Origin: Candidatus Peribacteraceae bacterium
GTDB lineage: Bacteria > Patescibacteriota > Gracilibacteria > Peribacterales > Peribacteraceae
Direction: 5' to 3'
Assembly (NCBI GenBank): GCA_041666245.1
Contig: JBAYHG010000003.1
Location: 15,977-79,976 of the forward strand
Length of the DNA stretch: 64,000 nt
Every line of letters begins with the position of its first letter. Position 1 is the first letter of the stretch. A program made the position numbers and the translations under genes. Shown piece by piece: positions 9,186 to 63,063 of the stretch. The notes under the pieces are model-generated. The model ran no database searches. It was given only the letters and a program-made list of their open reading frames with translations, and had not been told where the DNA came from.

Positions 9186-12011
9186 ATGCAGAAGAAAACC
9201 ATCCAGATTCTCTCCCTGATCCTCTTCGTTTGTCTCCTCCTTTGGGGGGGATTCGCGCTCCTCTCGTACCTCGGGATTCCCGTGCACGGGGTTGTCCTCC
9301 TCAATGAGGCCGCACAGAAGCAGGCGGAGACGGCATGCGCATCCGATGGGTTTTTCTGCAGAGGCCTCGCGGCGCTCCTGCCTTCCATCAGCCACTTGAT
9401 CAGTCGATCGGCACCGTTCTTCGGATACGCGTTCGTGTGCATGCTCCTCTGGCTCCTCTTCGCAGGTTGGCGTTTGCTCGTGACGGGAGAGGGCAGGGTG
9501 AGGATCTCCTGGCGGCCTATCTACTTCCCTCTTCTCTTCCTCGGTCTTGTTTGGGTGCTCTTCACCACACTCTCCGCGGGGTCCCAGGATGGCATGCCTG
9601 TGCGACAGATCGTGGAGCCGACGAGCCAGGCATACGGTTCGCTTAGCGGTAACCAGCTCCAGGCGCTCAAGACTAATTTCGATCAGCTTCAAAAGAAGGG
9701 CTGCCTCGTCGTGGCAGGCCAGGCCAGGGAGGGGATCAATGTGTACTGGATGCGCAATTCGTGCATTCAAAGTGCGTTCATGACGACCGCGTTGCCGCAG
9801 TTCCTTCTCGTGTGTGTCCTCCTTTTCGAGCTCCTCGTTCTCGGACGGTTCCTGCTCCGTCTCCTCGGAGTTCGAACGCGCACATTCGTGGAAGAGATTG
9901 CGCTCAGCGCCGGGATCGGGGCCGGAGGCTGGATCGCGTTGCTCTGGACTCTCGCTGTCGTCGGTCTCTATGTACAGCTGGCCGGCTGGCTCCTCGCCGT
10001 TCTCATTCCAATTGTCTGTTGCAAGGACGCACTCGCCTGGGCTCGTCGCTTCCTTCAGCCTTCCCCTTTCGAGTGCTCCTGGCGTTCGGTGCAGCTCTTC
10101 TTCGGCTGGCTGCTCTTCAGCTACCTCGCGCTCAATTTTCTCACGGTCATCCGCCCCTTCCCCATCGGTTGGGATGATCTGGGCAGCTACATCAATCGGC
10201 CGCGCCTGCTCGTGAGCTACGGGCACTTCATTTTCCCGATGTCGTCATTCCAGTGGGAGTACATCACGTCGGTGGGTTTCCTCCTCTTCGGTTACGACAG
10301 TCTCTTCGCAGCAACGGCCGCGATGGTCATCAATTGGACGGAAGGTCTCCTGGCGATTCTTGCAGTCTTCCTCTTCGGGCGGACGTTCCTCGGCAGCGGT
10401 CGTGGTCTGCTCTCCGCGCTCCTCTACTACACGCTTCCTATTGTCGGTCACTTCTCCTTTGCGGACATGAAGATCGACAACGCCGTGTTCATGAGCGGGG
10501 CATTGGCTGTTTTCTGCGTGTTCGTTGCGCTCTTTCCTCCCGAAGAAAGCGAGACACCTCTCCCCGAAGCGGCAGGATGGAGACGGTATCTTCCGTTGCG
10601 TTGGCAGTGGATTGTTCTCGGCGGATTGCTTGCTGGTCTCTCTTTTGGGATGAAGGCCACGGCGGCGATGGTCATCCTGGCCATCCTTGCGATGCTCCTT
10701 GGTGTTGCACATCTCTCCGCCGCGTTCGCCGGCGTCCTCTTCACGATCTATGTTTTTGTCACTCAAGGTGCTCTCAACCTCGGAGATGTAGCGACGCGAA
10801 TCGCAGGGGGGACGATGCTTGTTTCCCGGTCTTTCGTGATGGCGATTCTCGGTTTCATCATTGTGCTCCTCATGGGCTGGGCACTCCGGCGGCGACCTCT
10901 TGCAGTGGTTCGTTCCTTCGTGATGACCGCTCTCTTCCTCTGTGGCGTCGGTCTCGCCGTCGCCCCCTGGCTGCTTCACAACAATCTGCTCGCAGGCAAC
11001 GTCGTACCCCACCTCCTCCTCACGGCACCCAATAATTTCACGCCCCAAATGGACTTCCGCAACTTCGGTATCCGAGGGGCGCCGGGGCAGGACGTGCGCA
11101 CGCTCCCCGCCGAGTTGCAGCTGGATCCCAAGAACGCCGCCTGCGGTTCCACGGCCGGATCCGAGGAGCTCGACCGGTACTGGGGATTCGGCAAGGGTTG
11201 GAGCCACTACCTCACACTTCCCTGGCGCACGGTGATGAACCTCGATGCCCCCGGGTACTACGTGACGACCATGCCGGGACTCCTCATCTTCCCGCTTCTC
11301 CTCCTCCTGCCTTTCTTCTGGATGAAGCGTGGGCGTTGGTTGCGCTGGCTCTTCCTCGTCACGTCCGTCCTCATCGTCGAGTGGATGTTCCTCGCCAACG
11401 GCATTCCCTGGTACGGCATCGGCATGTTCCTCGGACTCGTCGTCGGTCTGGAGGCATTCATCGTCCATGCGCCGGATACACTCAATAAGACGCTGGCCGG
11501 AATTCTCATCGCATCCTCGCTCATGATCTGCTTCGCGATGCGTTTCTGGCAATTCGATCAGCAGCGCAACCTCCTCGAGTACCCCATGGGCAAGATCTCC
11601 GCGGACACGCTGCGGATCCGGACGATTCCCTACTACGATCAGATACGAGCATCGGTCATGGAGCGCAACACATTCATGCCTGACCGGCCGTACCTGTATC
11701 GCGTGGGGACGTTCATTCCCTACTTCATCCCGCGGAATCTGGAGGTCATTGGGATAACGGATCACCAGCTGGATGCATTCAATTGTCTGAATCAGGAACG
11801 CAACCCCGAGCTCACACTCAAGCGTCTGAAGGCGTTGGGATTCAACAGCATCGTCTTCGACACGAATACCGCGACGATCGAGCAGGACCCCAATGGCTCA
11901 CTTCACAAGAAGGTGCAGGAGTTTGCGAATTTCCTCAACACGCCCTCGCTCGGGCTGCAGATCGTCGTCAACGATCCTCCGCAGGGGGTGGCATTCATCC
12001 TCATTCCCTGA
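9186..12011 (+). CDS. Very large polytopic membrane protein with C-terminal soluble domain (putative GT-C-like glycosyltransferase)
   Basis: About 941 aa from the ATG at 9186 (MQKKTIQILSLILFVCLLLWGG). It has at least 16 hydrophobic segments and a soluble C-terminal ~130 aa. A GT2 + DUF2304-like pair lies downstream. The track start at 9129 is a TTG. The function is inferred from architecture and context only. Confidence 0.6.
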   Translation: MQKKTIQILSLILFVCLLLWGGFALLSYLGIPVHGVVLLNEAAQKQAETACASDGFFCRGLAALLPSISHLISRSAPFFGYAFVCMLLWLLFAGWRLLVTGEGRVRISWRPIYFPLLFLGLVWVLFTTLSAGSQDGMPVRQIVEPTSQAYGSLSGNQLQALKTNFDQLQKKGCLVVAGQAREGINVYWMRNSCIQSAFMTTALPQFLLVCVLLFELLVLGRFLLRLLGVRTRTFVEEIALSAGIGAGGWIALLWTLAVVGLYVQLAGWLLAVLIPIVCCKDALAWARRFLQPSPFECSWRSVQLFFGWLLFSYLALNFLTVIRPFPIGWDDLGSYINRPRLLVSYGHFIFPMSSFQWEYITSVGFLLFGYDSLFAATAAMVINWTEGLLAILAVFLFGRTFLGSGRGLLSALLYYTLPIVGHFSFADMKIDNAVFMSGALAVFCVFVALFPPEESETPLPEAAGWRRYLPLRWQWIVLGGLLAGLSFGMKATAAMVILAILAMLLGVAHLSAAFAGVLFTIYVFVTQGALNLGDVATRIAGGTMLVSRSFVMAILGFIIVLLMGWALRRRPLAVVRSFVMTALFLCGVGLAVAPWLLHNNLLAGNVVPHLLLTAPNNFTPQMDFRNFGIRGAPGQDVRTLPAELQLDPKNAACGSTAGSEELDRYWGFGKGWSHYLTLPWRTVMNLDAPGYYVTTMPGLLIFPLLLLLPFFWMKRGRWLRWLFLVTSVLIVEWMFLANGIPWYGIGMFLGLVVGLEAFIVHAPDTLNKTLAGILIASSLMICFAMRFWQFDQQRNLLEYPMGKISADTLRIRTIPYYDQIRASVMERNTFMPDRPYLYRVGTFIPYFIPRNLEVIGITDHQLDAFNCLNQERNPELTLKRLKALGFNSIVFDTNTATIEQDPNGSLHKKVQEFANFLNTPSLGLQIVVNDPPQGVAFILIP

Positions 12012-12024
12012 TCGCAGGGAAGCT

Positions 12025-12117: not shown

Positions 12118-12783
12118 ATGATTATTGCGGTCATTCCGGCCTTCAACGAAGCCAAGCGCGTCGGTCCGGTTGTGGAGGGTGCGCGTCGCTTCGCGGAAGC
12201 GGTGATCGTGGTGGATGACGGATCCACGGACGAGACGGTTTCCGTGTGCGAACGGGCCGGCGCGCACGTCGTACGTCACCTGGAGAATGCGGGTGCGGGC
12301 GCCGCGACGATGACGGGACTGGAGGCGGCGAGAACGATGGGCGCGACGACGGTCATCACACTGGATGCCGATGGGCAGCATGACCCCTCCGATATCCCGC
12401 TGGTCCTCGCGCCGATCCATGAGGGGCGGGCGGACATCGTCTTTGCCAACCGGTTCGGTCAGCGCAACAACATTCCCGCGATCCGCCGCATCTTCAACAG
12501 CATCGGCAATGTGCTCACACTGCTCGCGGCGGGCATGTGGGTCAGCGACAGCCAGTGCGGATTCAAGGCCTTCGGGCCGAAGGCGCTCTCAGAAATCGAC
12601 CTGCGCATGACGGGGTTCGAATTCTGTACGGAGATCGTCCGGGAGGCGGCGGTCCGGCACTGGCGCGTCGCACAGGTGCCGACGAAAGTCATTTACTCCG
12701 AATACACTATGGCGAAAGGCCAATCCTTCGCCAATGGCGTAAAGACAGCTTTACGCATTCTCCTCCGATCGATCCTACGCTAG
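12118..12783 (+). CDS. GT2 family glycosyltransferase (polyprenyl-phosphate sugar synthase type)
   Basis: MIIAVIPAFNEAKRVGPVVEG..VIVVDDGSTDET..ITLDADGQHDP..SQCGFKAF.. shows the DxD and GT-A motifs. The ATG at 12118 was confirmed. The track ORF start at 11893 lies inside the previous gene. Confidence 0.85.
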   Translation: MIIAVIPAFNEAKRVGPVVEGARRFAEAVIVVDDGSTDETVSVCERAGAHVVRHLENAGAGAATMTGLEAARTMGATTVITLDADGQHDPSDIPLVLAPIHEGRADIVFANRFGQRNNIPAIRRIFNSIGNVLTLLAAGMWVSDSQCGFKAFGPKALSEIDLRMTGFEFCTEIVREAAVRHWRVAQVPTKVIYSEYTMAKGQSFANGVKTALRILLRSILR

Positions 12784-13179: not shown

Positions 13180-13213
13180 TATCCTTTGACTCCTTTGATT
13201 CTTCTGAATCCTC
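13144..13213. repeat. Imperfect hairpin of 9-nt AAGGAAGCT-type units spanning a gene junction
   Basis: The left arm is AAGGAAACAAAGGAAGCTAAGGAAGCTAAGGAA, the loop is TAATAT, and the right arm is CCTTTGACTCCTTTGATTCTTCTGAATCCTC. About two thirds of positions pair by hand alignment. Confidence 0.5.
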
Positions 13214-13233
13214 TGCTTCTTCTCTCCGAACGC

Positions 13234-14382
13234 GTGAAGACCATTCTTCTCATCAGCCCCTACTGGAAAGAGCCCCATCGCTGGATGGTGAGTTCGGTGA
13301 AGTTGGCGGAACTCTGGCGACGCCTGGGATATCGCGTGGTCGTTGCATGTATGGGGAACGCCCTCACCCCCAACCCCTCTCCCGCGGGGAGAGGGGAGCG
13401 CGTTTCCATGCAGTCGGTGTCCGATTCTCTGAAGATTTATCGTATGAAGGACATCTTTCTGAAAGACCCCTGGAACTACGGCATCGCGTTCGGGTTCTCC
13501 GGATTCGTGATGGACATTGTGAGGCAAGAGAAGCCGGATCTCATCGTCATCAACAAGCTCCTCTTCTGGACGTCGCTCTCGGCATGCAGACTCCGGCTCG
13601 CCGGGAAGAAATTCCTCCTCCTCACGGATGCGTTCGTGGGGATGACGTGGTGGCCGCGTGGACGATTGCCGAAGATCGGCGCTGCGATCTACGCGTGGAC
13701 GCTCGGATGGTTGATCCTTCTCTTCGCCGAGAAGGTCGTGACGTTCCATCCGCAGCCGCAGAAGCTTCTTTCGCGGCTTGGCATCGCGAAGAAGACGCAA
13801 GTCATTCCCACGGGTCTCGACCCCTCATTCCACGTGCCGCGCGTCCATCACCGCGATCCGCGCGTCATTGTGACGTACGTGGGGCGATTGGAATCGGTGA
13901 AGGGCGTCGATGATTTCCTCGAAGCCGTCACGCCGCTCCTCGCTCACCATCCCGAGGCGCTCATCCAGGTCGTTGGCTGGTACAAAGACGCACATCCTCT
14001 CGTTGAGCGTCACGCACATCAGGTGACGTTCACAGGCTTGCGGGAAGACGTACCGGCCATCCTTTCCGAGTCAGACATCTTCGTCCTCCCGAGCTACAGC
14101 GAGGGACTCAGCAATGCGCTCATGGAGGCGATGGCGAGCGGCTGCGCGTGCGTTGCATCCGATGTCGGCGGCAATCGTTTCCTCATTCAGAACGGTATCA
14201 CGGGCTTCCTCTTTCCGGTGGGGGATCGGGAGGCGCTGGCGGCGCATGTTCGGCGTCTCATCAATGATCCTTCGAAGAGACAAACGTTGGGAGAAGCGGC
14301 GAGGAAACGGATCGTCGAGCATTTTTCGTGGGAAGTCGTTTCAAAAATGTACGAAAATCTCTTCTCCGTATTCAACTCATGA
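13234..14382 (+). CDS. GT4 family glycosyltransferase carrying an in-frame REP-like insertion
   Basis: VKTILLISPYWKEPHRWMVSSVKLAEL..(NPSPAGRGE insert)..VTYVGRLESVKGVDDF..LPSYSEGLSNALMEAMASGCACVASDVGGN.. shows the EX7E-type GT-B C-domain motif. The GTG at 13234 is preferred over the TTG at 13186, which lies in the repeat. Confidence 0.8.
   Translation: MKTILLISPYWKEPHRWMVSSVKLAELWRRLGYRVVVACMGNALTPNPSPAGRGERVSMQSVSDSLKIYRMKDIFLKDPWNYGIAFGFSGFVMDIVRQEKPDLIVINKLLFWTSLSACRLRLAGKKFLLLTDAFVGMTWWPRGRLPKIGAAIYAWTLGWLILLFAEKVVTFHPQPQKLLSRLGIAKKTQVIPTGLDPSFHVPRVHHRDPRVIVTYVGRLESVKGVDDFLEAVTPLLAHHPEALIQVVGWYKDAHPLVERHAHQVTFTGLREDVPAILSESDIFVLPSYSEGLSNALMEAMASGCACVASDVGGNRFLIQNGITGFLFPVGDREALAAHVRRLINDPSKRQTLGEAARKRIVEHFSWEVVSKMYENLFSVFNS
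13374..13396. repeat. REP-like perfect palindrome CCCCTCTCCC-GCG-GGGAGAGGGG inside the GT4 coding sequence
   Basis: A 10-bp stem with a 3-nt loop, read directly from the sequence. It translates in frame as ..TPNPSPAGRGERV... Confidence 0.8.
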
Positions 14383-14403
14383 TTCATTCGAAGAATATCT
14401 TTT

Positions 14404-14620
14404 TTCCTTCCCCTACTTTCTCTGTCTGCCCGACAGAGAAAGTAGCAAAGAGAGCGCACCACGCGCCAAGGCTCCTCCGCCCGGCCCGGTACCTCCTCAC
14501 CGGCTCCTCCAAGGTTTCGGAGCCGTCTCGTCGGTATGTGCTGCGGCACCGGGCCTTCCCCTTCACCCCCCGTGGCGCGCGGGGCCTCGCCTGTATGTTG
14601 TTTGATGTTTGTTTTTGTAG
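14404..14620 (+). repeat. Structured intergenic repeat, copy A (full length)
   Basis: It aligns by eye with 24411..24615 and 27795..27885. It has a perfect 14-bp hairpin at 14413..14445, a second hairpin CCGGCTCC..GGAGCCG, a ~63-nt block nearly identical to copy B, and a T/G-rich tail ending at the start of the next gene. Confidence 0.8.
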
Positions 14621-14626
14621 GTGTGT

Positions 14627-15694
14627 ATGTTGAAATCTTCAATCGTCATTCTGTCGGCTTTCGTCACTCCCTTCCGCAGCGGGGCGGAGGCATGCGTGGA
14701 GGAGGTTTCGTCCCGTCTCAAGGATCGCTTCGACATCACCATCGTGACGGCGAGATTGCGTCGTGATTTGCCCGGGCGCGATGTCCTCAACGGCGTGAAT
14801 GTCGTGCGCGTCGGCATCGGATCGTCCGCTGACAAGTGGTTCTTCCCCGTGCTCGCCCCCTTCGCAGCGAAGAAGCTCCGTCCGCAGATCGTCCACGCCG
14901 TTCTCGAGTCCTACGCAGGGGCAGCGATGATGTTCTGCGGGTGCATCGTGCCCGGAGCGAAGCGGATCCTCACATGTCAGAGCACGAATACTTCCTTCCT
15001 CGTCTCCGCGATGCACAAGCTGGCGGACAGAGTGACCGTGATCAGCTCCGTGCTCGTCGAACGCGCGAAGAAATTCGGTCGGAGCGATGTTACGTTGATC
15101 CCGAACGGGATACCGTACGGCGCTATCCGCGAAGAGTGTTCGAAGACGCCGAAGGTGACAGGAAGGATCCTCTTCGTGGGCCGGCTCGAGCAGATGAAAG
15201 GCGTCGATACGCTGCTCGCTGCATTACGACTGCTGAAGGAGAAGACGGGACAGATCCCGGATCTGCACGTGATCGGCGATGGAAGCCTGCGTGGCGTTCT
15301 TGAGGCGCAGAGCCGTTCCTTCCTTTCAGAGGGCAGCTTCTACGGGTACCTCCCGCCCGCTGAAGTTCAACGCGAGATGGCCGAGGCCGAGATTTTCGTC
15401 GGACTCTCACGGTCAGAGGCGCTCGGCAATGTGTTCCTGGAGGCGCAGGCTGCGGGATGCGCGGTCGTCGGGACGAATGTCGGCGGGATACCGGATATCG
15501 TGAAGAACGGTGCCAACGGATTGCTTGTTCCCGCGGACGATCCGGCGAAGGCGAGCGTGGCGATCGAGAAGTTGCTCAAAGATTCACCGGAGAGGCTGCG
15601 GCTTTCCGAAGCGGGGATCGCGTTCGCGAAGCAGTATGACTGGCAGGGGATCGCGGAGAAGTATGCCTCCGTTTATGAAGCGTCGTTGCGGTGA
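14627..15694 (+). CDS. GT4 family glycosyltransferase
   Basis: MLKSSIVILSAFVTPFRSGAEACVEEV..ILFVGRLEQMKGVDTL..GLSRSEALGNVFLEAQAAGCAVVGTNVGGIPDIV... The ATG at 14627 is preferred over the GTG at 14621. Confidence 0.85.
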   Translation: MLKSSIVILSAFVTPFRSGAEACVEEVSSRLKDRFDITIVTARLRRDLPGRDVLNGVNVVRVGIGSSADKWFFPVLAPFAAKKLRPQIVHAVLESYAGAAMMFCGCIVPGAKRILTCQSTNTSFLVSAMHKLADRVTVISSVLVERAKKFGRSDVTLIPNGIPYGAIREECSKTPKVTGRILFVGRLEQMKGVDTLLAALRLLKEKTGQIPDLHVIGDGSLRGVLEAQSRSFLSEGSFYGYLPPAEVQREMAEAEIFVGLSRSEALGNVFLEAQAAGCAVVGTNVGGIPDIVKNGANGLLVPADDPAKASVAIEKLLKDSPERLRLSEAGIAFAKQYDWQGIAEKYASVYEASLR

Positions 15695-16404
15695 TCCCGG
15701 ACGAGTGATGAGGCTCTGTACAAACTCTCGAACGTTCCTGCGTCGATCCATTCTTTCCGCAGAATCGTCGCGGTCAGGTTCTTTCTCTCGAGGTATGCCC
15801 TGCTCACGTCCGTGATCTCGATCTCCCCGCGCGCGGACGGTTTGAGTGTCCGGATGATGTCGAAGCAATCCTTGTCGTAGACATAGCAGCCCGTAACGGC
15901 GTAGTTGGATTTCGGCTTCTTCGGTTTTTCTTCTATGGATACCACCTGAACACTTCCGTCCGTGTGTCCATCGAGCTCTGCGACACCGAAACGTTCCGGA
16001 TCGGGGACTTCTTTCAGGAACACGTGACCGCCGCTCTTGCATCGTTTGATCGTCGAAGAGAGATCGTCGAAGAAGATGTTGTCACCGAGGAGAGCACACA
16101 CCTGCTCATGATCTGCGAATTCTTCGGCAAGCCCCAATGCCTGCGCGATGCCACCGGGTTTTTCCTGCACTTTGAAGGCGAAGGTGCACCCGAAGCGCGA
16201 GCCGGATCCGAGGAATGCCGTCATCTGATCGAGGTGCTCGGGGCCCGTGATCACGGCGATGTCCTGGATCCCCGCGCTCAGGAGGATATGCAGAGGGTAG
16301 AGGATGAGCGGTTTGTCATACACAGGCAGCAGGCTCTTGTTCGTCACGTCCGTGAGGGGGCGAAGTCTGGAACCGGTGCCGCCGCAGATCAGAACTCCTT
16401 TCAT
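15673..16404 (-). CDS. rmlA: Glucose-1-phosphate thymidylyltransferase-like sugar nucleotidyltransferase (short form)
   Basis: MKGVLICGGTGSRLRPLTDVTNKSLLPVYDKPLILYPL..GGIAQAL..LGDNIF..PERFGV..EEKPKKPKSNYAVTGCYVYD... The G-x-G-T-R-L signature is present. It is divergent from rmlB. Specificity (dTDP versus other NDP) is not proven. Confidence 0.75.
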   Translation of the reverse strand: MKGVLICGGTGSRLRPLTDVTNKSLLPVYDKPLILYPLHILLSAGIQDIAVITGPEHLDQMTAFLGSGSRFGCTFAFKVQEKPGGIAQALGLAEEFADHEQVCALLGDNIFFDDLSSTIKRCKSGGHVFLKEVPDPERFGVAELDGHTDGSVQVVSIEEKPKKPKSNYAVTGCYVYDKDCFDIIRTLKPSARGEIEITDVSRAYLERKNLTATILRKEWIDAGTFESLYRASSLVRDHRNDAS

Positions 16405-16441
16405 GAGTTGGGGGTGTGACTACTATAGCTTCTTATGACAG

Positions 16442-16526
16442 AGGTGAGGAAGGTAAGGAAGGGTAGGAAGGTTTGTTTCATTGGGATTTTCTGCCGTTCC
16501 TTACGTTCCTGCCCTTCCTGCTTTCC
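16442..16526. repeat. Imperfect hairpin of 9-nt (T/G)NAGGAAGG units in a divergent promoter region
   Basis: The left arm is GAGGTGAGGAAGGTAAGGAAGGGTAGGAAGG, the loop is ~22 nt, and the right arm is CCGTTCCTTACGTTCCTGCCCTTCCTGCTTTCC. It lies between the starts of rmlA (16404, -) and rmlB (16546, +). Confidence 0.6.
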
Positions 16527-16545
16527 ATGCGCTACCATAGTCCGC

Positions 16546-17493: not shown

Positions 17494-17518
17494 GAAAGGG
17501 CAGAGAAGGCAGAAAGGA
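17478..17518. repeat. Purine-rich 9-nt periodic tract overlapping the rmlB stop
   Basis: GAAGGCAGGGAGGTAAGAAAGGGCAGAGAAGGCAGAAAGGA contains the same 21-mer as 7827..7869. Confidence 0.6.
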
Positions 17519-17611
17519 TTTCCAGAGGTGCGTTATGGAATTTCGAGAGTCCCGGAGGCAAGAAAGTGCGCTATCATTGGGGGGTGAAGATTGTCTTGGC
17601 CACCCGTCTTC

Positions 17612-17650
17612 GCTCCTTCGGAGCTACGCCGGGCAGGCCGGGATAGCTCC
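17612..17650 (+). promoter_or_regulatory. Nested stem-loops in the 5' leader of the GT4 operon (REP-like sequence)
   Basis: GCTCC-TTC-GGAGC lies at 17612..17624. GGAGCTA..(CCGG-GCAGG-CCGG)..TAGCTCC lies at 17620..17650 and ends 9 nt before the ATG at 17660. Confidence 0.45.
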
Positions 17651-17659
17651 TTCTCCGTT

Positions 17660-20918: not shown

Positions 20919-20923
20919 AGTGC

Positions 20924-55852: not shown

Positions 55853-56555
55853 CCATGAAGGCTTCCTCCACTGTCGCTTTCCGCGCAATGACGCACAGAT
55901 GGCTGCCGGTGTGCGGGAAGAGAAGGAGCAGGAGACGAGTGAGGATGCCGCGGGCTTTCGATGTCGCGCCGATGTTTTCGATCACGAAACCATGTGTCTC
56001 GAGGAGTTGCCGGAGCATCGCAGGCGTGTAGAAGATCTTGTGTTGCGGTTGGAGCAGTACCTGCCCTTTCTCTCTCAATTCGGAGAAGGCGTTCCTTGCC
56101 TCATGGAAGGACAACGTGCGGTTGTCACCCATGGAACTTTCGCGGCGGAAGAGGAAACCCATGATAGTGCCGATGCGGTATGGATTGGGCGTGTCGAGCA
56201 GGAGGAGACCTCCCGGTTTCAGGATGCGCCGGCATTCCCGGATCATCATCGAAGGCGTCCACGTGTGTTCGATGATCTCTCCCGCGTAGACCGTATCGAA
56301 TGAACCGTTCTCAAACGGCGCATGTTCCAGATCGCCGACGACCTGATTCGGCAAGGCAAGTTTCCGCGTCAGGCCTTCGTTGGAGTCGAGGCCCACGTAC
56401 GTGCCGCCTTCCGCTTCCACCGCCCGCCTCAATCTCTCATTGGTCGACTCGCCGTCACCGAGATTTCCGGCATCCAGAAGCCGTATCGGTTTCTTCGGAA
56501 GCGACTCCAACACGAACCCGAGACGGCCGGGGTACGATCGAAAGGTGAAGCGCAT
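55818..56555 (-). CDS. Class I SAM-dependent methyltransferase
   Basis: ..IRLLDAGNLGDGES..YVGLDSN..DLEHAPFENGSFDTVYAGEIIEHTWTP..LKPGGLLLLDTPN... Confidence 0.8.
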   Translation of the reverse strand: MRFTFRSYPGRLGFVLESLPKKPIRLLDAGNLGDGESTNERLRRAVEAEGGTYVGLDSNEGLTRKLALPNQVVGDLEHAPFENGSFDTVYAGEIIEHTWTPSMMIRECRRILKPGGLLLLDTPNPYRIGTIMGFLFRRESSMGDNRTLSFHEARNAFSELREKGQVLLQPQHKIFYTPAMLRQLLETHGFVIENIGATSKARGILTRLLLLLFPHTGSHLCVIARKATVEEAFMDVAHAPASDAR

Positions 56556-56560
56556 GGGGA

Positions 56561-57835
56561 TCAGAGCGTAAGGTACGAGGCTCCCGTGGTCGAGACGACA
56601 GCAGGGTCGATGACACCCTTCAGGTCAAAGAGAATACCGTCCGGGGAAAGCGCCTTCAGCAACCCCTTTGCTCCCAAGGTGACGTACGGTGTGTGCGTGA
56701 CGAGCAGAACGATGGCGTCGTAGGGGCCACGTTCCAAGGTTCCCGGCCTGAAGCCGAGTTTCGAAATTGCCTCTTCGGGAAGAAACGGGTCGTGCGCTTC
56801 CACGGCGAAACCGCGCTTCATCAGGTGTTTCACCACATCCTGCGCCTTGCTGTTCCTGGTGTCGGGAATGTCCTCTTTGAACGTGAGGCCGAGGACGAGG
56901 ATGCGCGCATTCTTCTTCCCACCCAACGCCGCAGCCACGCGTTCCGCCACATACCCGCTCATGCCGTCGTTGGTCGATCGCCCGGCCGTGATCACGTGCG
57001 TCGTCATGCCGAGCTGCTTCGCTTTCTCCACGAGGTAGTACGGATCCACGCCGATACAGTGGCCGCCGACGAGGCCGGGAGAAAACTTGAGGAAGTTCCA
57101 CTTCGTGCCCGCCGCCGCCAGTACATCCTTCGTCGAGATGCCGATCTTTCCGCAGAGCATCGCGATCTCATTCATGAAGGCGATATTGATGTCGCGCTGC
57201 GCGTTCTCGATGGCTTTGGCCATCTCCGCCACTTTGAGCGACGGTGCGCGATGCACGCCCGCCACGATCACTGATCCGTAGAGATCCATGAGCGCATCCG
57301 TGGTCTTCTCGTCCTGCCCGGACACGATCTTCCGGATCTTTGTGACCGTGTGCTCCTTGTCGCCGGGGTTGATCCGTTCCGGCGAGTAGCCGAGAGTGAA
57401 ATCCTTTCCGCATTTCATTCCTGAATGTTTCTCGAGGATGGGACCGCAGAGCTCCTCCGTGACGCCGGGGTAGACGGTCGATTCGTAGACGACGATGGCG
57501 CTCTTCTTCAGGTTCTTCCCGACGGTTTCCGAAGCCTGGAAAAGAATCGTCATGTCGGGGTTGTTCTCTTCATCAATGGGTGTCGGGAGAGCCATGATGA
57601 CCACGTCACCGTTCTTGATGATCGCGGGGTCTGTCGAGAACTCGATCTTCGCCTCTCCCAATTGTGTTTCGCTCAATTCCAGCGTTGAGTCCTTGCCCGC
57701 CTTCAATTCCTCCACGCGCCGCTTCGAGATGTCATACCCGAAGACAGGATGCCCCTTCTTCGCGAAGGCGTGCGCGAGCGGGAGGCCCACGTAGCCGAGT
57801 CCCACGACGCAGATCGAACAACGGTCGGTATCCAT
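56561..57835 (-). CDS. Nucleotide-sugar 6-dehydrogenase (TviB/WbpO/WbpA-like UDP-N-acetylhexosamine dehydrogenase family)
   Basis: ..ICVVGLGYVGLPLAHAFAKKGHPVFGYDISKRRVEELKAGKD..ALPTPID..YESTVYPGVTEE..GYSPERINPGD..GGHCIGVDPYYL..LGLTFKEDIPDTRNS... Confidence 0.88.
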   Translation of the reverse strand: MDTDRCSICVVGLGYVGLPLAHAFAKKGHPVFGYDISKRRVEELKAGKDSTLELSETQLGEAKIEFSTDPAIIKNGDVVIMALPTPIDEENNPDMTILFQASETVGKNLKKSAIVVYESTVYPGVTEELCGPILEKHSGMKCGKDFTLGYSPERINPGDKEHTVTKIRKIVSGQDEKTTDALMDLYGSVIVAGVHRAPSLKVAEMAKAIENAQRDINIAFMNEIAMLCGKIGISTKDVLAAAGTKWNFLKFSPGLVGGHCIGVDPYYLVEKAKQLGMTTHVITAGRSTNDGMSGYVAERVAAALGGKKNARILVLGLTFKEDIPDTRNSKAQDVVKHLMKRGFAVEAHDPFLPEEAISKLGFRPGTLERGPYDAIVLLVTHTPYVTLGAKGLLKALSPDGILFDLKGVIDPAVVSTTGASYLTL

Positions 57836-57895: not shown

Positions 57896-59383
57896 ATGTA
57901 CCATGCCTTCATGCAGTCGGAAGCAGCGTCTTCTTGCGATGTCCTCATTCTCGGCGGGGGTCCCGCGGGCATGGCCGCGGCCATGGAGCTCGTGCGCGCG
58001 GGCCGGCATCCGTTGATCGTGGAGAAGGATGCACAGGTGGGAGGTCTCGCGCAGACCCTGCGCTTCGAGCAGCCGGAGGGCACGTACCTCACGGACATCG
58101 GCCCGCACCGCTTCTTCAGCAAGAACAAGTATCTGTACGATTTCATCGGGGATCTTCTCGGAGAGGAGTGGCGGAAGATCCCGCGACACACCCGTTTCTT
58201 CGTGGACGGAAAGTTCTACCACTACCCGGTGCGCCTCGGACAGGTCCTGCGCAACGTCGGTCCCTTGAACGCTTTTCACGCGATGTGGGATTACCTGCTC
58301 GCCCGCCTCTTCCCCCGCGAAATCCGCACGTTTGAGGACCATTCGATCAACACCTTCGGTCGCTGGCTGGCCGCGTTCAACATGCTCAACTACACTGAGA
58401 AGATCTGGGGGATTCCATGCAACCAGATCAGCGTGGACTGGGCGACACAGCGCATCGCAGACCTCAGCATCTGGTCCATCCTAAAGAAAGCTCTCTTCCG
58501 CGGACAGCAGGGTCCGAAGACGCTCACCGATTCCTTCTACTACCCCTCGCTGGGGAGCGGGCTCATCTACCGGAGGATCCGCGAACGGGTCGAGGAACGC
58601 GGCGGGGAGGTCCGTACGAGTGCGCAGCCCGTTGCCATCCATTGGGAGGGGCGGCGCGTGACGAGCGTGGAGGTTTCATCCGCGGGGGGCACACAGGCCT
58701 TCTCCCCGCAGGCGGTCGTTCATTCCGTTCCGCTCACGCAGACGGTACACCTCTTCCATCCGTCTCCACCGGCGGAGGTGATGGAAGCCGCCTCCGCACT
58801 CCGATTTCGCTCGCAGGTGTACCTCTTCCTCACGGTGAACCGCGAACGCATCGGACCGGACAACTGGGTGTATTTTCCGGATCTGGAAGTCCCCTTCGGT
58901 CGCATGAGCGAGATGAAGAATTTCAGCGAGCGCATGTGTCCGACCGGAAGGACGTCACTCTTCATCGAATTCTTCTGCTTCGAGGGGGATGACATCTGGA
59001 AGGCTTCGAAGGAGGAACTCTTCGAACGATCCATGCCCTGGCTGGAGCGACTTGGCTTCCTTCGTCGGGAAGAAGTGACGAGCATGCACCACCTGCGGCG
59101 GGCGAATTCATACCCTCTCTACGATCTGTCCTACCACGGGCACGTGCAGACCGTACTCAGGTGGCTGGACGGGTTCGAGAATTTCTACGCAGTGGGGCGT
59201 CCCGGTCGTTTCCGTTATACCAACCAGGATCACTCGCAGGAGATGGGCATCCTCGCGGCGCAGAGTATCCTCGACGGGCGCCGCCGGGATCTGGATCAGG
59301 TCGGTGCGGAGGATGAGTACTTCGAAAGAGGCTTTGTTCCTGAGCAGTACAAGCGTGTCATGGTGAGCGCAGTCGAACCATAG
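57896..59383 (+). CDS. FAD-dependent oxidoreductase (amine-oxidase/PPOX-like fold)
   Basis: ..CDVLILGGGPAGMAAAMELVRAGRHPLIVEKDAQVGGLA..YPSLGSGLIY..GRPGRFRYTNQDHS... It has an N-terminal GxGxxG dinucleotide fold. The start could be the ATG at 57896 or at 57911. Confidence 0.75.
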   Translation: MYHAFMQSEAASSCDVLILGGGPAGMAAAMELVRAGRHPLIVEKDAQVGGLAQTLRFEQPEGTYLTDIGPHRFFSKNKYLYDFIGDLLGEEWRKIPRHTRFFVDGKFYHYPVRLGQVLRNVGPLNAFHAMWDYLLARLFPREIRTFEDHSINTFGRWLAAFNMLNYTEKIWGIPCNQISVDWATQRIADLSIWSILKKALFRGQQGPKTLTDSFYYPSLGSGLIYRRIRERVEERGGEVRTSAQPVAIHWEGRRVTSVEVSSAGGTQAFSPQAVVHSVPLTQTVHLFHPSPPAEVMEAASALRFRSQVYLFLTVNRERIGPDNWVYFPDLEVPFGRMSEMKNFSERMCPTGRTSLFIEFFCFEGDDIWKASKEELFERSMPWLERLGFLRREEVTSMHHLRRANSYPLYDLSYHGHVQTVLRWLDGFENFYAVGRPGRFRYTNQDHSQEMGILAAQSILDGRRRDLDQVGAEDEYFERGFVPEQYKRVMVSAVEP

Positions 59384-59458: not shown

Positions 59459-60367
59459 TCATGTGTGCTTCAGATACCACGCGACCGCTTTCTCCATGCC
59501 TTCGCGGAACGGCGTTTTCGGATCGAATCCGAGCTCCTTGCGTGCCTTGGTGATGTCCGCCACGTAGTGTGTCACTTCGCCGGTGCGCGGCGGCGCGAAG
59601 GAGACGCTCGAGGAGCTCTTCGTGAGTTCCTTCACGATCTCGGCGCATGAAACGAGAGTGGAACCGCTGCCGAAGGCGAGATTGAACGTTTCCCCCTTAA
59701 TAGTGTCGAACCGTTCGAGTACCTGGATGATGCCGGAAACGGTGTCGTCGATGTACGTGAAATCCAGGAGTTTCCCCTTCCCGAAGATGACGAGCGGTTC
59801 GTTCTTGCGCGCCTGCCGGATGAAGAGCGGCACCACGCGGTCCGAGACGTCGTACGCGCCGTAGACATTGGAAAAACGGAGGATGACCGGTGTCAGGCCG
59901 TAGCATTTCTCGTAGGACGTTACGAGCGCTTCCCCGCCCAGCTTGCTCGCGGTGTAGGGGCTCTCGCAGTTCTCCACGCGCACGAGGTCCTCGGTGCAGC
60001 GTTCCGTCTTGATGTTGCCGTAGCACTCGCGTGAGGAGGCGAAGACGAAGCGGGGGATCTTGTGCAACCGGCAAAATTCCAGGGTGCGGAAGAGCATGAC
60101 GAAATTATCGAGCGCCCGGGCTGGTTCTTTCACCAGTTCATACACCCGTGCGTTCGCCGCCAGGTGCACGACCATTTCCACGTCATGTGGGAGAGCGTCG
60201 AAGACCTTCTCATCGCGCAGATCGGCGATCAACGTGCGTTTGTTGACCGAGGGATTCCACTGATTCGGAACGAGATCGGCGCCCACGACATCGTGCCCCT
60301 CCTCGAGGAGGCGCTCGCAGAGCCGTGTGCCGATGGTGCCGGAGGAACCGGTGACCAGGAGTCGCAT
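59459..60367 (-). CDS. NAD-dependent epimerase/dehydratase (extended SDR)
   Basis: MRLLVTGSSGTIGTRLCERLLEEGHDVVGADL..VHLAANARV..FASSRECYG..SPYTASKLGGE..RFSNVYG... Confidence 0.85.
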   Translation of the reverse strand: MRLLVTGSSGTIGTRLCERLLEEGHDVVGADLVPNQWNPSVNKRTLIADLRDEKVFDALPHDVEMVVHLAANARVYELVKEPARALDNFVMLFRTLEFCRLHKIPRFVFASSRECYGNIKTERCTEDLVRVENCESPYTASKLGGEALVTSYEKCYGLTPVILRFSNVYGAYDVSDRVVPLFIRQARKNEPLVIFGKGKLLDFTYIDDTVSGIIQVLERFDTIKGETFNLAFGSGSTLVSCAEIVKELTKSSSSVSFAPPRTGEVTHYVADITKARKELGFDPKTPFREGMEKAVAWYLKHT

Positions 60368-60872: not shown

Positions 60873-61583
60873 GTGCTTTCGCTCATCCTTCCCACCTATA
60901 ACGAGGCCGGTAATATCAAAGCAATCGTCGAACGGCTGCAGAAGATCCTTGCGGGAATCCCGCACGAGATCATCGTCGTCGATGATGATTCGCCGGACGG
61001 GACGTGGAAGATCGTGGAGGCATTGTCGGCGCATGATACGTCGATTCATTCTCTCCGCCGTGTCGGGCGACGCGGCCTTTCATCAGCGGTCGTTGAGGGG
61101 TTTGGCATGGCGCACGGGACGGTTCTGGCCGTGGCGGATGCGGATGGGCAGCACGACTACACGATCCTCCCCGCTCTCTACCAGGCCGTGGTTGCCAATG
61201 CGGGTCTCGCCATTGGGTCGCGGTACGTGGAAGGGGGGAGCACGGGAAATTGGAACGAGAGTCGCAGGCTTCTCTCCCGGCTCGCGACATGGCTTACCCT
61301 TTCGCTCTGCCGCGTGCATGTTGCCGATCCCATGAGCGGATTCTTCGCCATCTCGCGGCAGACATTCGAGAGCATTCGTTCCCAACTCCGTCCACGCGGT
61401 TTCAAAATTCTCTTCGAGATTCTCCTGCATGTACGGAGTGATACGGCGGTTACGGAGGCCCCCTACACATTCGGCGTACGGAAAACGGGAGAGAGCAAAA
61501 TGACTTTTCACGTAGAGCTCGCGTTCCTCTTCATGCTCTTTTCGGCGGCATTTCACCGCATTTTCACACGATCCTCTCTGTGA
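60873..61583 (+). CDS. Dpm1-like GT2 (polyprenol-phosphate mannose/hexose synthase type)
   Basis: VLSLILPTYNEAGNIKAIVERL..IIVVDDDSPDGTWKIV..RRVGRRGLSSAVVEG..VADADGQHD..GSRYVEGG..SGFFAISR... The GTG at 60873 is preferred because the ATG at 60795 would leave no spacer to the divergent ORF at 60791. The start is uncertain. Confidence 0.8.
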   Translation: MLSLILPTYNEAGNIKAIVERLQKILAGIPHEIIVVDDDSPDGTWKIVEALSAHDTSIHSLRRVGRRGLSSAVVEGFGMAHGTVLAVADADGQHDYTILPALYQAVVANAGLAIGSRYVEGGSTGNWNESRRLLSRLATWLTLSLCRVHVADPMSGFFAISRQTFESIRSQLRPRGFKILFEILLHVRSDTAVTEAPYTFGVRKTGESKMTFHVELAFLFMLFSAAFHRIFTRSSL

Positions 61584-61885
61584 CCTCTTCCCGGACGCCG
61601 GCGCTCCTCTTCTGTCTGTTGTTCACGATCATCGCGGCGCCACTCCTGCTCCGTGCGTGGGCGATTCGACCGCTCTTCTTCGATGCCGCTGTCCGGTCAC
61701 AGACGCAGGTCGCGCTCTCGCAGGTCGCGCAGTCCCGCGGCTGGATCCTCTCCGACATTTCGCTTCGTTCCGTCACCGCTGATTCGCTGACTCTCGTTCA
61801 TCGCGAACACCGGCGCGTTCCCTCTGACGCCGCTTGTCTCATGGTGAAGCTCTCCACCTTCGAAGTCTCCCCATGCGAAAGCTGA
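61580..61885 (+). CDS. Small N-terminally anchored protein between the GT2 and the GT-C-like gene
   Basis: 101 aa with a GTG start overlapping the GT2 stop (GTGA): MTSSRTPALLFCLLFTIIAAPLLLRAW.. is followed by a soluble ~70 aa. Its end overlaps the next start by 13 nt. Confidence 0.5.
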   Translation: MTSSRTPALLFCLLFTIIAAPLLLRAWAIRPLFFDAAVRSQTQVALSQVAQSRGWILSDISLRSVTADSLTLVHREHRRVPSDAACLMVKLSTFEVSPCES

Positions 61886-63063
61886 CGCTCATCGCCGTGC
61901 TCGAAGCCTATGCCCTGTTCCTCGCATGGGTGCAGTCGCTGCATGGCGTTCTCACGGACGAGGCGAAGTACCTGCTGAATATTCCGTATCCCCACCCGCC
62001 GCTCATCCGATCCATTCTCTCCCTCACGACGGCGTTGTCCGTGCAGGAAATGCTCTGGCGCATCGTCTTCGCGTCACTCCTCGTGCAGGCGGTGTGGATC
62101 GTGTGGGAGATCGGGCGCGGGCTCTCGGGCGAGCAACGCTTCGTCCTCGGCGGGTCATGGCTCCTCTCCGCCGCACTCGTCCTGCAGGCAGGCACCATCA
62201 TGATGGCCCCCCTGACAGCGCTCGAAGGATTGGTGTTCGTTGCGCTGTATGTCGCAGCGGAAACGACATCCCGAAGCCGGATTCCACGATCGCCATTCCT
62301 CATCGGGGTCCTCTGGCTCGCGTCGCTCTTCACGGCGTTCCAGGCCGTCCTCTACCTGCCGCTCGTCTTCGCCATGTTCCGGAAGATGAGGGTTTCCGTG
62401 ATGGAGATGATCATCTACATCATCGGTCCCATGGTCCTCGCCGCCCTCTTCGCTCTCGCGGAGCCCCTCATTCTCGCGAGCTTCGTGAATGTCGGAACGA
62501 AGGATGTAGATGTATCCGCTTTGGGAAGGACGATCAATCTCTTCCGCGCCTGGAGCATTGGCGGGAGCGTGTTGCTCGGGCTCCTCGGAACGGCCGGCAT
62601 ACTCCTCGAGCGGCGGTGGGCGCTCCTTGGAAGCCTCCTTCTCGTCTGTGCGTACGTCTTCCTCTCATTCCATTTCTACTACGCGATTCTCTTCCTGCCG
62701 CTCTTCATCGGCGGGATGCCGGCATTCTTCCATCATCTCTGGAAGAAACCTGCGCCGCTCATTTTCCCGCTCATCTTCATCACGGGCATCATCCTCGCAC
62801 TCTTCCCGCTGAAGCTCTCGCCGTCTCCGGCACGTGCCGTTGCCCGTTCACTCCCCGTCTCCGGCACCGGGGTCCTGCTCATCAATGGTTCCTTCGGCCA
62901 TGAGTGGCAGTACGAGAGCCCCGTGCCCGTGCGGCGGTTTCAGCAGTCACTCCTCCCGGATGCGGAGGCGGTTGTGTGTCTGACACCATGCGAGGAAATG
63001 ACGAGGGTCGATGGCTGGAAGACGCTCGCCGGTCAATCGGTGGAGGTGTGGGTGAGGAAGTAA
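61873..63063 (+). CDS. GT-C-like (PMT_2/ArnT-type) polytopic membrane glycosyltransferase candidate
   Basis: MRKLTLIAVLEAYALFLAWVQSLHGVLTDEAKYLLNIPYPHPPL... The DE-x-x-Y motif follows TM1. There are about 10 TM helices and a C-terminal soluble ~90 aa. Confidence 0.7.
   Translation: MRKLTLIAVLEAYALFLAWVQSLHGVLTDEAKYLLNIPYPHPPLIRSILSLTTALSVQEMLWRIVFASLLVQAVWIVWEIGRGLSGEQRFVLGGSWLLSAALVLQAGTIMMAPLTALEGLVFVALYVAAETTSRSRIPRSPFLIGVLWLASLFTAFQAVLYLPLVFAMFRKMRVSVMEMIIYIIGPMVLAALFALAEPLILASFVNVGTKDVDVSALGRTINLFRAWSIGGSVLLGLLGTAGILLERRWALLGSLLLVCAYVFLSFHFYYAILFLPLFIGGMPAFFHHLWKKPAPLIFPLIFITGIILALFPLKLSPSPARAVARSLPVSGTGVLLINGSFGHEWQYESPVPVRRFQQSLLPDAEAVVCLTPCEEMTRVDGWKTLAGQSVEVWVRK

Follow-up and report, generated by a model that had tools for sequence, protein, structure and literature searches.

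Which kind of glycan-building apparatus is encoded by a long run of glycosyltransferase, membrane protein and sugar-tailoring genes in a Candidatus Peribacteraceae bacterium, a groundwater member of the Peregrinibacteria with a tiny genome, and how would its parts work together? The window analysed here is the whole stretch of 64,000 nucleotides at positions 15,977 to 79,976 of contig JBAYHG010000003.1 (assembly GCA_041666245.1). A previous sequence-only reading had proposed about five extracytoplasmic glycosylation modules next to a Wzx-type pathway, each module with a lipid-phosphate-sugar synthase of glycosyltransferase family 2 (GT2), a flippase and a membrane-embedded glycosyltransferase of the GT-C fold. 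Three-component systems of this type are well established and widespread (PMC11127046). The genes from 9186 onwards probably form the main cell-envelope glycan locus of the organism, in which family GT4 enzymes would assemble a backbone and multiple GT2/flippase/GT-C modules would act outside the membrane. The best-supported arrangement is four to six such modules alongside a cytoplasmic GT4-based assembly line, with four conserved GT2/GT-C pairs among them. Genes were called from long open reading frames (ORFs) with the expected codon-position pattern of guanine plus cytosine (GC) and are named by their start coordinate in the window (e.g. 61873; Table 1). About 60 proteins of the window were annotated with Pfam and NCBIfam. 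The corresponding loci of three sister Peribacteraceae genomes (L004, L005 and L007) were read and orthology was checked by BLAST; a sister Peribacteria genome (L006) was the source of the relative of 4709.

The six GT2 genes starting at 12118, 33814, 39897, 52755, 53610 (the stop end of a minus-strand gene) and 60873 all scored above the Pfam Glycos_transf_2 cutoff, with 84-116 bits against 23.3. They are old paralogues of 25-35% identity in an all-versus-all BLASTP comparison and share the motifs PxxNE, VDDxSxD and D(A/C)D in alignment. The best NCBIfam models were PpgS for 12118 (175 bits, full length), PgfS and ArnC for 33814 (200 and 193 bits, full length), AglJ for 52755 (122 bits) and 53610 (79 bits), AglJ and dolichol-phosphate (Dol-P)-hexose transferase for 39897 (64 and 60 bits, with ArnC also among the best), and PgfS and AglJ for 60873 (56 and 51 bits). 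The score of 12118 lies below the PpgS equivalog cutoff of 370 bits, and the protein is thus not a PpgS orthologue. A phmmer search against PDB sequences covered 12118, 39897, 52755, 53610 and 60873, and the top matches of these five enzymes were DPMS or ArnC (E values from 4.6e-9 to 1.2e-49). Residues 2-214 of 60873 matched the whole catalytic domain of Pyrococcus DPMS (5mlz, 1.2e-49), residues 5-221 of 39897 aligned to residues 22-241 of the same P. furiosus protein (2e-40), and residues 3-239 of 52755 matched ArnC (9bhc, 1.3e-22). The best match of 53610 was DPMS 5mlz (4.3e-14), while ArnC and DPMS headed the list for 12118 at about 5e-9. Processive synthases (PgaC, NodC, chondroitin and heparosan synthases) and soluble GT2 enzymes (SpsA, GpgS) always ranked far lower. 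By these comparisons all six enzymes are closest to polyprenyl-phosphate sugar synthases and not to processive or soluble synthases; the best models and structures were all characterised polyprenyl-phosphate glycosyltransferases, in agreement with the class proposed before. Two transmembrane (TM) segments in 33814 and in 52755, the GtrA fusion in 53610 and the DUF2304 partner of 12118 would account for membrane association of these four enzymes.

No TM segments were predicted in 12118, 39897 and 60873, and these three could instead be ordinary Leloir GT2 enzymes which extend a lipid-diphosphate-linked oligosaccharide in a classical Wzx-dependent pathway, their adjacency to membrane protein genes being a by-product of packing. 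The presence of a Wzx-like gene and many GT4 genes would suit such a role, as would the fact that no NCBIfam equivalog cutoff was reached. However, the DPMS matches of 39897 and 60873 extend across the catalytic domain into the region before the membrane domain, and the full-length PpgS alignment of 12118 is accompanied by a DUF2304 gene next to it, as in the pairs PpgS/Rv3632 and GacI/GacJ. The orthologue of 60873 in L004 is fused to GtrA, and the pairings with GT-C genes are kept in rearranged genomes. Dpm1-class enzymes that lack TM segments are also well known, among them human DPM1, the catalytic domain of mycobacterial Ppm1 and PpgS. We regard the Leloir explanation as quite improbable for these three genes.

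The second component was sought among six polytopic membrane proteins with 8-18 TM segments predicted by hydropathy, which start at 4709, 9186, 46222, 51521, 54680 (minus strand) and 61873; the gene starts of 9186, 51521 and 61873 are consistent with those of their orthologues. The six proteins were mutually unrelated in the all-versus-all BLASTP comparison and are not paralogues, and the modules are therefore repeated in logic and not by recent duplication. Three acidic-aromatic motifs that had been noticed before (VDEAFYF, LTDEAKYL and SSDSASYD) are indeed positioned just after the first TM segment and are conserved in their families. Equivalent invariant motifs were found in 54680 (YDGAQYY) and 9186 (WDDLGSY), so that five of the six proteins (61873, 54680, 51521, 9186 and 4709) carry an invariant or near-invariant D/E motif at this place; no acidic motif after the first TM segment was identified in 46222. 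By sequence, neither the membrane proteins nor their profiles had useful matches in PDB; only fold and profile-profile comparison worked.

The protein 61873 has 450 homologues and no Pfam domain; those with a named source among the matches listed were all from Peregrinibacteria/Patescibacteria. Its AlphaFold2 model, built from a 56-sequence alignment, reached a predicted local distance difference test (pLDDT) of 94.6 and a predicted TM-score (pTM) of 0.92. All of the top 27 Foldseek matches in PDB were GT-C enzymes (among them ALG12, ALG9, AftD, ArnT, STT3, PMT, Emb, DPY19 and PIG-U), with a best E value of 4e-6 (ALG12) and TMq up to 0.67 (ArnT). D29 and E30 are invariant in the 56 sequences. 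A GT-C fold can be assigned to the model with confidence. The 61873 profile matched that of the PMT_2-like 51521 family at an hhalign probability of 30%.

For 54680, no Pfam or PDB sequence match was found and the NCBIfam match stayed below threshold (NF046093, 103 bits; cutoff 150); this is the AZOBR_p60025 'cell surface glycopolymer formation' family, on which a literature search retrieved nothing. The AlphaFold2 model (pLDDT 92.7) gave 21 top Foldseek matches that were all GT-C enzymes, without Wzy, WaaL, SEDS or transporter structures among them. Its profile matched the 51521 family with an hhalign probability of 88% (E 2.9e-6), and in this alignment YDGAQYY coincided with the motif DAxxY; Y61, D62 and G63 are invariant. 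The structural model thus supports a moderate match to the GT-C fold. For 61873 and 54680, matches to the major facilitator superfamily (MFS), to G-protein-coupled receptor-like proteins and to other transporters appeared only at Foldseek probabilities below 0.15, and none of the six membrane proteins resembles a transporter.

A function as glycan polymerase, ligase or scaffold with a distant multi-helix architecture is a rival explanation which concerns 54680, 4709 and 46222 in particular. The NCBIfam family of 54680 is described only in terms of glycopolymer formation, its Foldseek E values are weak, no other Wzy or ligase was found in the window, and 4709 and the TM part of 46222 are without significant family match. 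Nevertheless, the top structural matches of 54680 belong to a single fold, its invariant YDG aligns with the catalytic DAxxY of the PMT_2-like family, and the gene always stands beside a Dpm1-like GT2 gene. Such a function is unlikely in our judgement.

Two further proteins were connected to PMT_2 through their relatives. The PMT_2 score of 51521 itself (19.4 bits) is below the cutoff; an exhaustive search returned 594 representative homologues, and of 64 sampled members of the family 40 matched PMT_2 (best 7.5e-17), three PMT and three Alg9-like. D38 and Y42 are at least 90% conserved in the 64 sequences, and 51521 is, as judged from its relatives, a PMT_2-like GT-C. Likewise, 9186 scored 20.5 bits with Pfam PMT_2, below the cutoff. 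Its full-length orthologues are 50-58% identical to it; roughly one in two contains PF13231, and several are named 'glycosyltransferase family 39' by NCBI. Its comparison with the 51521 family profile gave an hhalign probability of 95.9% (E 5.6e-9) over 347 columns, with WDDLGSY aligned to DAxxY, and the orthologues and the profile together indicate that 9186 is a PMT_2-like GT-C as well.

The remaining two proteins are less certain. 46222 matched Pfam YfhO (PF09586) with 41.7 bits against a cutoff of 28.5, over model positions 761-828 of 835, and its C-terminal region gave weak PgfM1/PgfM2 matches; its TM region had no PDB or profile match, and hhalign against the PMT_2-like family returned about 1%. 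4709 had no Pfam, NCBIfam or PDB match, and its single relative in the GTDB representative genomes is the protein of L006 (44% identity). Metagenome scans yielded no homologue of 4709 or 46222, and hhalign found no match between 4709 and the 61873 family. The similarity of 4709 to GT-C enzymes is suggestive and makes it a candidate. The number of GT-C enzymes is four, probably five or six: of the six proteins proposed earlier to be GT-C or YfhO-like, 61873, 54680, 9186 and 51521 bore out the prediction, 46222 exceeded the Pfam YfhO cutoff only through its C-terminal 70 residues, and 4709 stayed suggestive. In L006 a DegT aminotransferase is fused to a Dpm1-like GT2 (1033-2970; Pfam 287 and 81.5 bits), and the 4709 homologue (2974-4662) lies directly downstream in a layout which resembles ArnB-ArnC-ArnT; 4709 has no GT2 neighbour in the window.

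In the window, four GT2 genes adjoin one of the membrane protein genes (9186/12118, 51521/52755, 53610/54680 and 60873/61873), and GtrA, gmd and YfhO form a further cluster at 44702-48672, all as read from the sequence before. These pairs recurred in the sister genomes. The order in L007 is that of the window: SufS, the 9186 orthologue, GT2, DUF2304, two GT4 genes, RmlA on the minus strand, a short-chain dehydrogenase/reductase (SDR) and two more GT4 genes. In L004 a MOP flippase gene is followed by the orthologues of 53610 and 54680, a methyltransferase, a free GtrA and a UDP-sugar dehydrogenase, and then by a flavin adenine dinucleotide (FAD) oxidoreductase, an SDR, the 60873 orthologue as a GT2-GtrA fusion, a 102-residue ORF and the 61873 orthologue. 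In L005 the 54680 orthologue adjoins the 53610 orthologue, and the 52755 orthologue adjoins the 51521 orthologue, next to which lies a MOP flippase gene; a Polysacc_synt gene is thus found beside GT2/GT-C pairs in both L004 and L005.

Each GT2 orthogroup stays with its GT-C orthogroup despite local rearrangement, and because the same pairs recur as orthologous neighbours in rearranged Peribacteraceae genomes, their adjacency goes beyond chance. The GtrA domain is mobile. It is fused to 53610 in the window, whereas the 53610 orthologues of L004 and L005 (62-69% identical; 69% to the catalytic domain in L004) are without it and the L004 orthologue of 60873 (8617-9708, 55% identical) carries it at the C-terminus; a free GtrA (4183-4608) is encoded near the 53610 orthologue of L004. 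The persistence of the pairings and the movement of GtrA between GT2 partners point to a functional coupling of synthase, flippase and GT-C. With the GT2/GT-C pairings and large parts of the gene order shared by three sister genomes, the glycan locus is a conserved, family-wide feature of the lineage and is not confined to this bacterium. Close relatives differ in their number of GT-C modules, as L007 carries an additional 462-residue PMT_2 GT-C (20134-21522) among the GT4 genes, where the window has none. A UbiA-HAD fusion in L005 (6888-9944) resembles polyprenyl-phosphoribose synthase plus phosphatase. It stands beside a NUDIX gene and an unannotated multi-TM protein of 539 residues, and the arrangement looks like a three-component module of the pentofuranose type, which is absent from the window.

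Candidates for the flippase step are two GtrA domains and one MOP-family protein. The GtrA domains reported earlier, one free-standing (44702) and one fused at residues 242-354 of the 53610-54680 protein, scored 80.5 and 75.4 bits with GtrA_DPMS_TM (PF04138, cutoff 26.1) and are 44% identical to each other. Flipping of lipid-phosphate sugars by GtrA has not been directly demonstrated even for the prototypes (PMC11127046). The only MOP flippase gene of the window, 31686, had been taken as the sign of a Wzx pathway. In this part the earlier proposal went too far: the window has one MOP-family flippase but no phosphoglycosyltransferase, Wzy polymerase or ligase; initiator, polymerase and ligase genes may be located in other parts of the genome. 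In the archaeal Agl system a Dol-P-sugar is flipped by the Wzx-like protein AglR. The Wzx-family protein GacK has been proposed as flippase for a lipid-monophosphate sugar in the Gac system (10.1101/180810), and a MATE-family protein has this role in a Citrobacter system (PMC11127046). By analogy with GacK and AglR, the MOP protein of the window could equally flip lipid-monophosphate sugars.

Two small membrane proteins accompany the pairs. The DUF2304 gene lies directly downstream of GT2 12118, an arrangement kept in L007; the DUF2304 proteins GacJ and Rv3632 bind and stimulate GacI and PpgS, respectively (10.1101/180810). The 101-residue ORF between 60873 and 61873 overlaps the start of the latter, is 43% identical to L004 9705-10013 (E 7e-24) and was predicted by gene callers in three assemblies; it may encode a small accessory subunit. 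A 100-residue ORF also precedes a PMT_2 GT-C in L005.

From the class assignments and the conserved pairings we infer the lipid carrier, sugars, flippase assignments and acceptors of the following scheme. Cytoplasmic tailoring enzymes (dehydratases, aminotransferases, formyl-, acetyl-, acyl- and methyltransferases, UDP-sugar dehydrogenases and AsnB) would make unusual activated sugars, and GT4 enzymes, also in the cytoplasm, would build a glycan backbone on a lipid. At the inner leaflet, every GT2 would charge polyprenyl phosphate with one sugar, in one case aided by the DUF2304/GacJ-type partner; the carrier is presumably a bacterial polyprenol, because the host is bacterial. The lipid-phosphate sugars would be flipped by the GtrA-family proteins, free or fused, and/or by the single MOP/Wzx-like protein, and each GT-C would pass its sugar to an extracytoplasmic acceptor. 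Possible acceptors are surface proteins, those of the S-layer included, or a glycopolymer of the wall or anchored in the membrane.

Several observations weigh against this scheme. No GT2 reaches its NCBIfam equivalog cutoff (the best scored 200 bits against 500), and the donor sugars cannot be assigned for that reason. In this genome 39897 and 60873 have no membrane anchor, although the L004 orthologue of 60873 carries a GtrA domain, and no GT-C gene adjoins 39897 or 33814. Only three candidate flippases face six synthases. The best Foldseek match of 54680 is modest (ArnT 5f15, E 3.5e-3, TMq 0.50), the YfhO match of 46222 is confined to residues 731-799 in its C-terminal soluble part, and the two-sequence profile of 4709 met the 51521 family weakly (hhalign 61%, E 8e-5, DE motif aligned). 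The window ORFs and 10 kb downstream contained no match to Bac_transf, Glycos_transf_4 (MraY/WecA), Wzy_C, O-antigen ligase or Wzz, nor was an LCP transferase found in the window. With initiating phosphoglycosyltransferase, polymerase, ligase and LCP transferase missing there, the backbone pathway and its acceptor stay out of sight.

A rival explanation is a system of protein glycosylation, in which the GT-C enzymes, like PMT, Pgf or AglS, would use lipid-phosphate sugars directly to O- or N-glycosylate S-layer proteins, pilin or the large Cys-rich surface proteins of Peribacteria and the locus would make no polymer backbone. The placement of 9186 and 51521 in PMT_2/GT39-like families is compatible with this possibility, and so are the best match of 33814 to PgfS and the weak one of 46222 to PgfM1/M2, both from the adhesin-glycosylation system of S. 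mutans, as well as the best matches of several GT2 enzymes to archaeal AglJ, an enzyme of S-layer N-glycosylation. Peribacteria encode S-layer and large extracellular proteins (PMC4736985), and Cys-rich secreted proteins are encoded inside the related locus of L006. Yet the conserved locus also contains seven GT4 genes and a MOP flippase gene, which speaks for the additional synthesis of an oligo- or polysaccharide. PMT_2 is broad and takes in ArnT-like modifiers of lipids and glycans, and the window shows no evident gene for an acceptor protein. We consider pure protein glycosylation possible, though doubtful. Sister loci (L007:1-5825 and L006:6097-7227) encode a protein of more than 3,500 residues with weak LVIVD and Peptidase_S74 matches and, next to the glycan genes, small Cys-rich secreted proteins; these proteins are possible glycosylation acceptors or adhesins.

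Returning to the combined backbone and module locus, its extent was followed beyond the window in a 1,029,054-bp European Nucleotide Archive (ENA) contig of a Candidatus Peribacteraceae metagenome-assembled genome (MAG; ERZ27249449 k141_181977), in which a hypothetical protein is 100% identical to the 61873-63063 protein. In window coordinates the locus extends from 9186 to about 65973, which makes 56.8 kb or 5.5% of the 1.03-Mb contig, and thus continues for about 2 kb past the window end with an epimerase and then a UDP-sugar dehydrogenase; housekeeping genes border it on both sides. The GC content of the window is about 0.60 (range 0.54 to 0.63) and within the locus mostly 0.58-0.63, with the lowest value (0.564) at 42-44 kb. 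A foreign island or a misassembly was rejected because of this even GC content and the gene order shared with the sister genomes. Three long ORFs, 24367-25815(+), 31633-33450(-) and 3328-4371(-), were discarded as genes, with Arg/Pro-rich translations, no TM segments and no Pfam match; the true genes at or near such spurious ORFs are the formyltransferase, MOP flippase and acetyltransferase genes of Table 1.

The tailoring functions named before were all recovered (Table 1), namely three DegT aminotransferases, a formyltransferase, four acyl- or acetyltransferases, a C-methyltransferase, AsnB and several methyltransferases of S-adenosylmethionine (SAM)- and FkbM-type. The list was extended by seven GT4 genes (five in 13186-20828, two in 20924-31636), a seventh GT2, the DUF2304 gene, the 101-residue ORF and the methyltransferase at 48684-49454(-), which is hidden in a shadow ORF (48684-50759) otherwise antisense to asnB. 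The FAD oxidoreductase 57911-59383 matched the NCBIfam 'hypothetical protein' PRK07208 above its cutoff (420 bits). In the window and in L004 it keeps its place between two GT2/GT-C pairs, accompanied by an SDR and a UDP-sugar dehydrogenase, and it may make a furanose or keto-sugar donor.

Table 1 Features in and next to the window (window coordinates; aa, amino acid residues)
Coordinates	Strand	Feature	Evidence or remark
3413-3502	-	tRNA-Ser(GGA)	
4709-6403	+	564-aa polytopic protein outside the main locus, candidate GT-C	8 TM segments; SVDEAFYF after first TM segment
7284-7358	-	tRNA-Thr(GGT)	Separates the 4709/methyltransferase pair from the NifU-SufS genes
ends 9108		Left boundary, housekeeping genes	pheT, tRNA, M50 peptidase, NifU, SufS
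9186-12011	+	941-aa GT-C glycosyltransferase (PMT_2/GT39-like)	Extra N-terminal membrane region
12118-12783	+	PpgS/GacI-like polyprenyl-phosphate sugar synthase, GT2	NCBIfam PpgS; no TM segment
12793-13179	+	DUF2304 small membrane protein, GacJ/Rv3632-like putative activator of adjacent GT2	60.5 bits; 3 TM segments
13186, 14621, 17591, 18691, ~19836 (starts)	+	Five GT4 glycosyltransferases	Pfam
15673-16404	-	RmlA-like nucleotidyltransferase	Pfam
16435-17493		4,6-dehydratase-like SDR	Pfam
20924-22018	-	DegT aminotransferase	
ends 22585		GNAT	
22582-23562		FemAB-like acyltransferase	
23559-24374		Atypical seventh GT2	
24616-25683	-	ArnA-N-like formyltransferase	NCBIfam 149 bits
25551-26567	-	GFO/IDH oxidoreductase	
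26551-27792		GT4	
ends 29038		UDP-N-acetylglucosamine (GlcNAc) 2-epimerase	
29035-30210		GT4	
30135-31034		Methyltransferase	
30989-31636	-	Hexapeptide acyltransferase	
31686-32996	-	MOP-family (Wzx/Polysacc_synt) flippase	Polysacc_synt 53.7 bits, cutoff 28.2; multi-TM
33149-33817	+	NeuD/PglD-type sugar N-acetyltransferase	TIGR03570 183.8 bits, cutoff 160.8; PglD_N and Hexapep
33814-34734	+	ArnC/PgfS/GtrB-type polyprenyl-phosphate sugar synthase	2 C-terminal TM segments; DADLQD motif
34736-35731	+	SDR epimerase/dehydratase	
35668-36450	+	WbmS-like	
ends 37534	+	DegT aminotransferase	
ends 38268	+	Methyltransferase	
38316-38732	+	Cupin	
38657-39841	+	DegT aminotransferase	
39897-40625	+	Dpm1/DPMS-type polyprenyl-phosphate sugar synthase, GT2	PDB 5mlz; no TM segment
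40622-41884		C-methyltransferase	
41881-42861		GDP-Man-dehydratase-like SDR	
42868-43683	-	271-aa soluble protein	No Pfam or NCBIfam match
43572-44702		FkbM methyltransferase	
44702-45103	+	Free-standing GtrA-family protein, candidate lipid-phosphate-sugar flippase	GtrA_DPMS_TM 80.5 bits
45141-46187	+	GDP-mannose 4,6-dehydratase (gmd)	GDP_Man_Dehyd 468 bits
46222-48672	+	816-aa YfhO-family membrane protein, candidate GT-C	At least 10 TM segments
48684-49454	-	SAM methyltransferase, 256 aa	Between YfhO and AsnB genes
49500-51377	+	AsnB-type amidotransferase	
51521-52792	+	423-aa GT-C glycosyltransferase, PMT_2-like family	
52755-53582	+	ArnC/AglJ-type polyprenyl-phosphate sugar synthase	2 C-terminal TM segments
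53610-54680	-	GT2-GtrA fusion, archaeal DPMS-like architecture	Pfam GT2 and GtrA_DPMS_TM
54680-55828	-	382-aa GT-C-like membrane protein	AZOBR_p60025-related family
55818-56555	-	Methyltransferase	
56561-57835	-	UDP-sugar dehydrogenase	
57911-59383	+	FAD oxidoreductase	Distantly related to UDP-galactopyranose mutase
59459-60367	-	SDR epimerase	
60873-61583	+	Dpm1/DPMS-type polyprenyl-phosphate sugar synthase, GT2	PDB 5mlz; no TM segment
61580-61885	+	Conserved 101-aa ORF between GT2 60873 and GT-C	One N-terminal TM segment
61873-63063	+	396-aa GT-C glycosyltransferase (by model)	No family match in Pfam, NCBIfam or PDB sequences
63304-64000	-	SDR epimerase, cut by window end	UDP-sugar dehydrogenase next, beyond window
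		Right boundary, housekeeping genes, past the UDP-sugar dehydrogenase	PfkB, AdoHcyase, PolX, RF1

Among known systems, the closest to module 9186/12118/12793 is the Gac system of S. pyogenes, which adds the N-acetylglucosamine side chain of the group A carbohydrate: the GT2 GacI makes an undecaprenyl-phosphate sugar, which serves a GT-C for transfer on the outer side of the membrane (10.1101/180810). The module mirrors GacL/GacI/GacJ in its content of GT-C, GT2 and DUF2304 genes. It differs in the GT-C, a PMT_2-like protein of 941 residues with an additional N-terminal membrane region, in the distance of 20 kb to the window's only MOP flippase and in an acceptor polymer that is not a known rhamnan. 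The PpgS (Rv3631)/Rv3632/Rv3779 system of M. tuberculosis likewise combines a DUF2304 partner with an acceptor-side GT-C and contains the best match of 12118, which is, however, no orthologue of PpgS (175 bits against a cutoff of 370). The GT-C gene of M. tuberculosis lies at a different genomic location.

The other modules of the window appear to mirror ArnC/ArnT, DPMS/AglS and CsbB/YfhO. DegT, an ArnA-N-like formyltransferase, ArnC-like GT2 enzymes and ArnT-like GT-C folds recall the ArnA/B/C/T pathway of lipid A aminoarabinose modification, but neither ArnD nor ArnE/F was identified, all scores are well below the equivalog cutoffs, and there is no lipid A in these presumably monoderm cells of the Candidate Phyla Radiation (CPR). 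The GT2-GtrA fusion reproduces the domain architecture of P. furiosus DPMS, whose structure 5mlz is matched by 39897 and 60873 at 1e-40 to 1e-50; unlike the archaeal Agl systems (AglJ/AglD, AglR, AglS), the window is without an AglB/PglB oligosaccharyltransferase. GtrA/B/V of Shigella, CsbB/GtcA/YfhO of Bacillus and Listeria and PgfS/M1/M2 of S. mutans follow the same three-component logic, with GtrA and YfhO family proteins also present in the window, yet they have one synthase each, whereas six synthases stand beside five or six GT-C families in the window. Many GT-C genes lie together with a lipid-phosphate-sugar synthase and a GtrA-like or MATE/MOP flippase in the arabinogalactan cluster of mycobacteria (Rv3779-Rv3809c), and a comparable grouping is found in the three-component pentofuranose systems of Citrobacter with GT136 (PMC11127046). 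Those systems rely on a phosphoribosyl synthase of the UbiA type and, in essence, on a single donor instead of six Dpm1-type GT2 enzymes, and the UbiA-HAD module occurs only in the sister genome L005.

The mechanism is not new. The arabinogalactan cluster of mycobacteria has a similar density of GT-C genes, and the suggestion that the module density of the window is unprecedented was overstated. What is unusual is that a single conserved locus in a genome of 1 Mb encodes six different synthases, and what is new is the identification, at the level of modelled folds, of GT-C families absent from Pfam. This provides an annotation for families labelled 'hypothetical' in hundreds of metagenomic genomes. 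The mobile GtrA domains and the DegT-GT2 fusion are natural experiments that support the coupling of synthase, flippase and GT-C.

The envelopes of CPR bacteria (Patescibacteria) are almost uncharacterised and the organisms largely uncultured. Our literature search retrieved no description of these modules in CPR bacteria. A large investment of Peribacteria in envelope sugars and isoprenoids had been noted before (PMC4736985). A wider interpretation, which we offer tentatively and do not expect to hold in full, is that of a lineage-specific multi-donor apparatus in Peribacteraceae, perhaps in Peregrinibacteria. It would use at least six lipid-phosphate sugars and at least three GT-C families unrecognised by databases (61873, 54680 and 4709) to build an unusually complex surface glycoconjugate for attachment or envelope integrity of ultra-small, probably host-dependent cells. 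If true, the locus would be a source of new CAZy GT-C families and would have, to our knowledge, the highest density of lipid-phosphate-sugar synthases per genome. That a 1-Mb genome gives about 5.5% of its DNA to a single conserved glycan locus indicates a central place of surface glycans in the biology of this bacterium, where they may serve host attachment, phage evasion or envelope stability.

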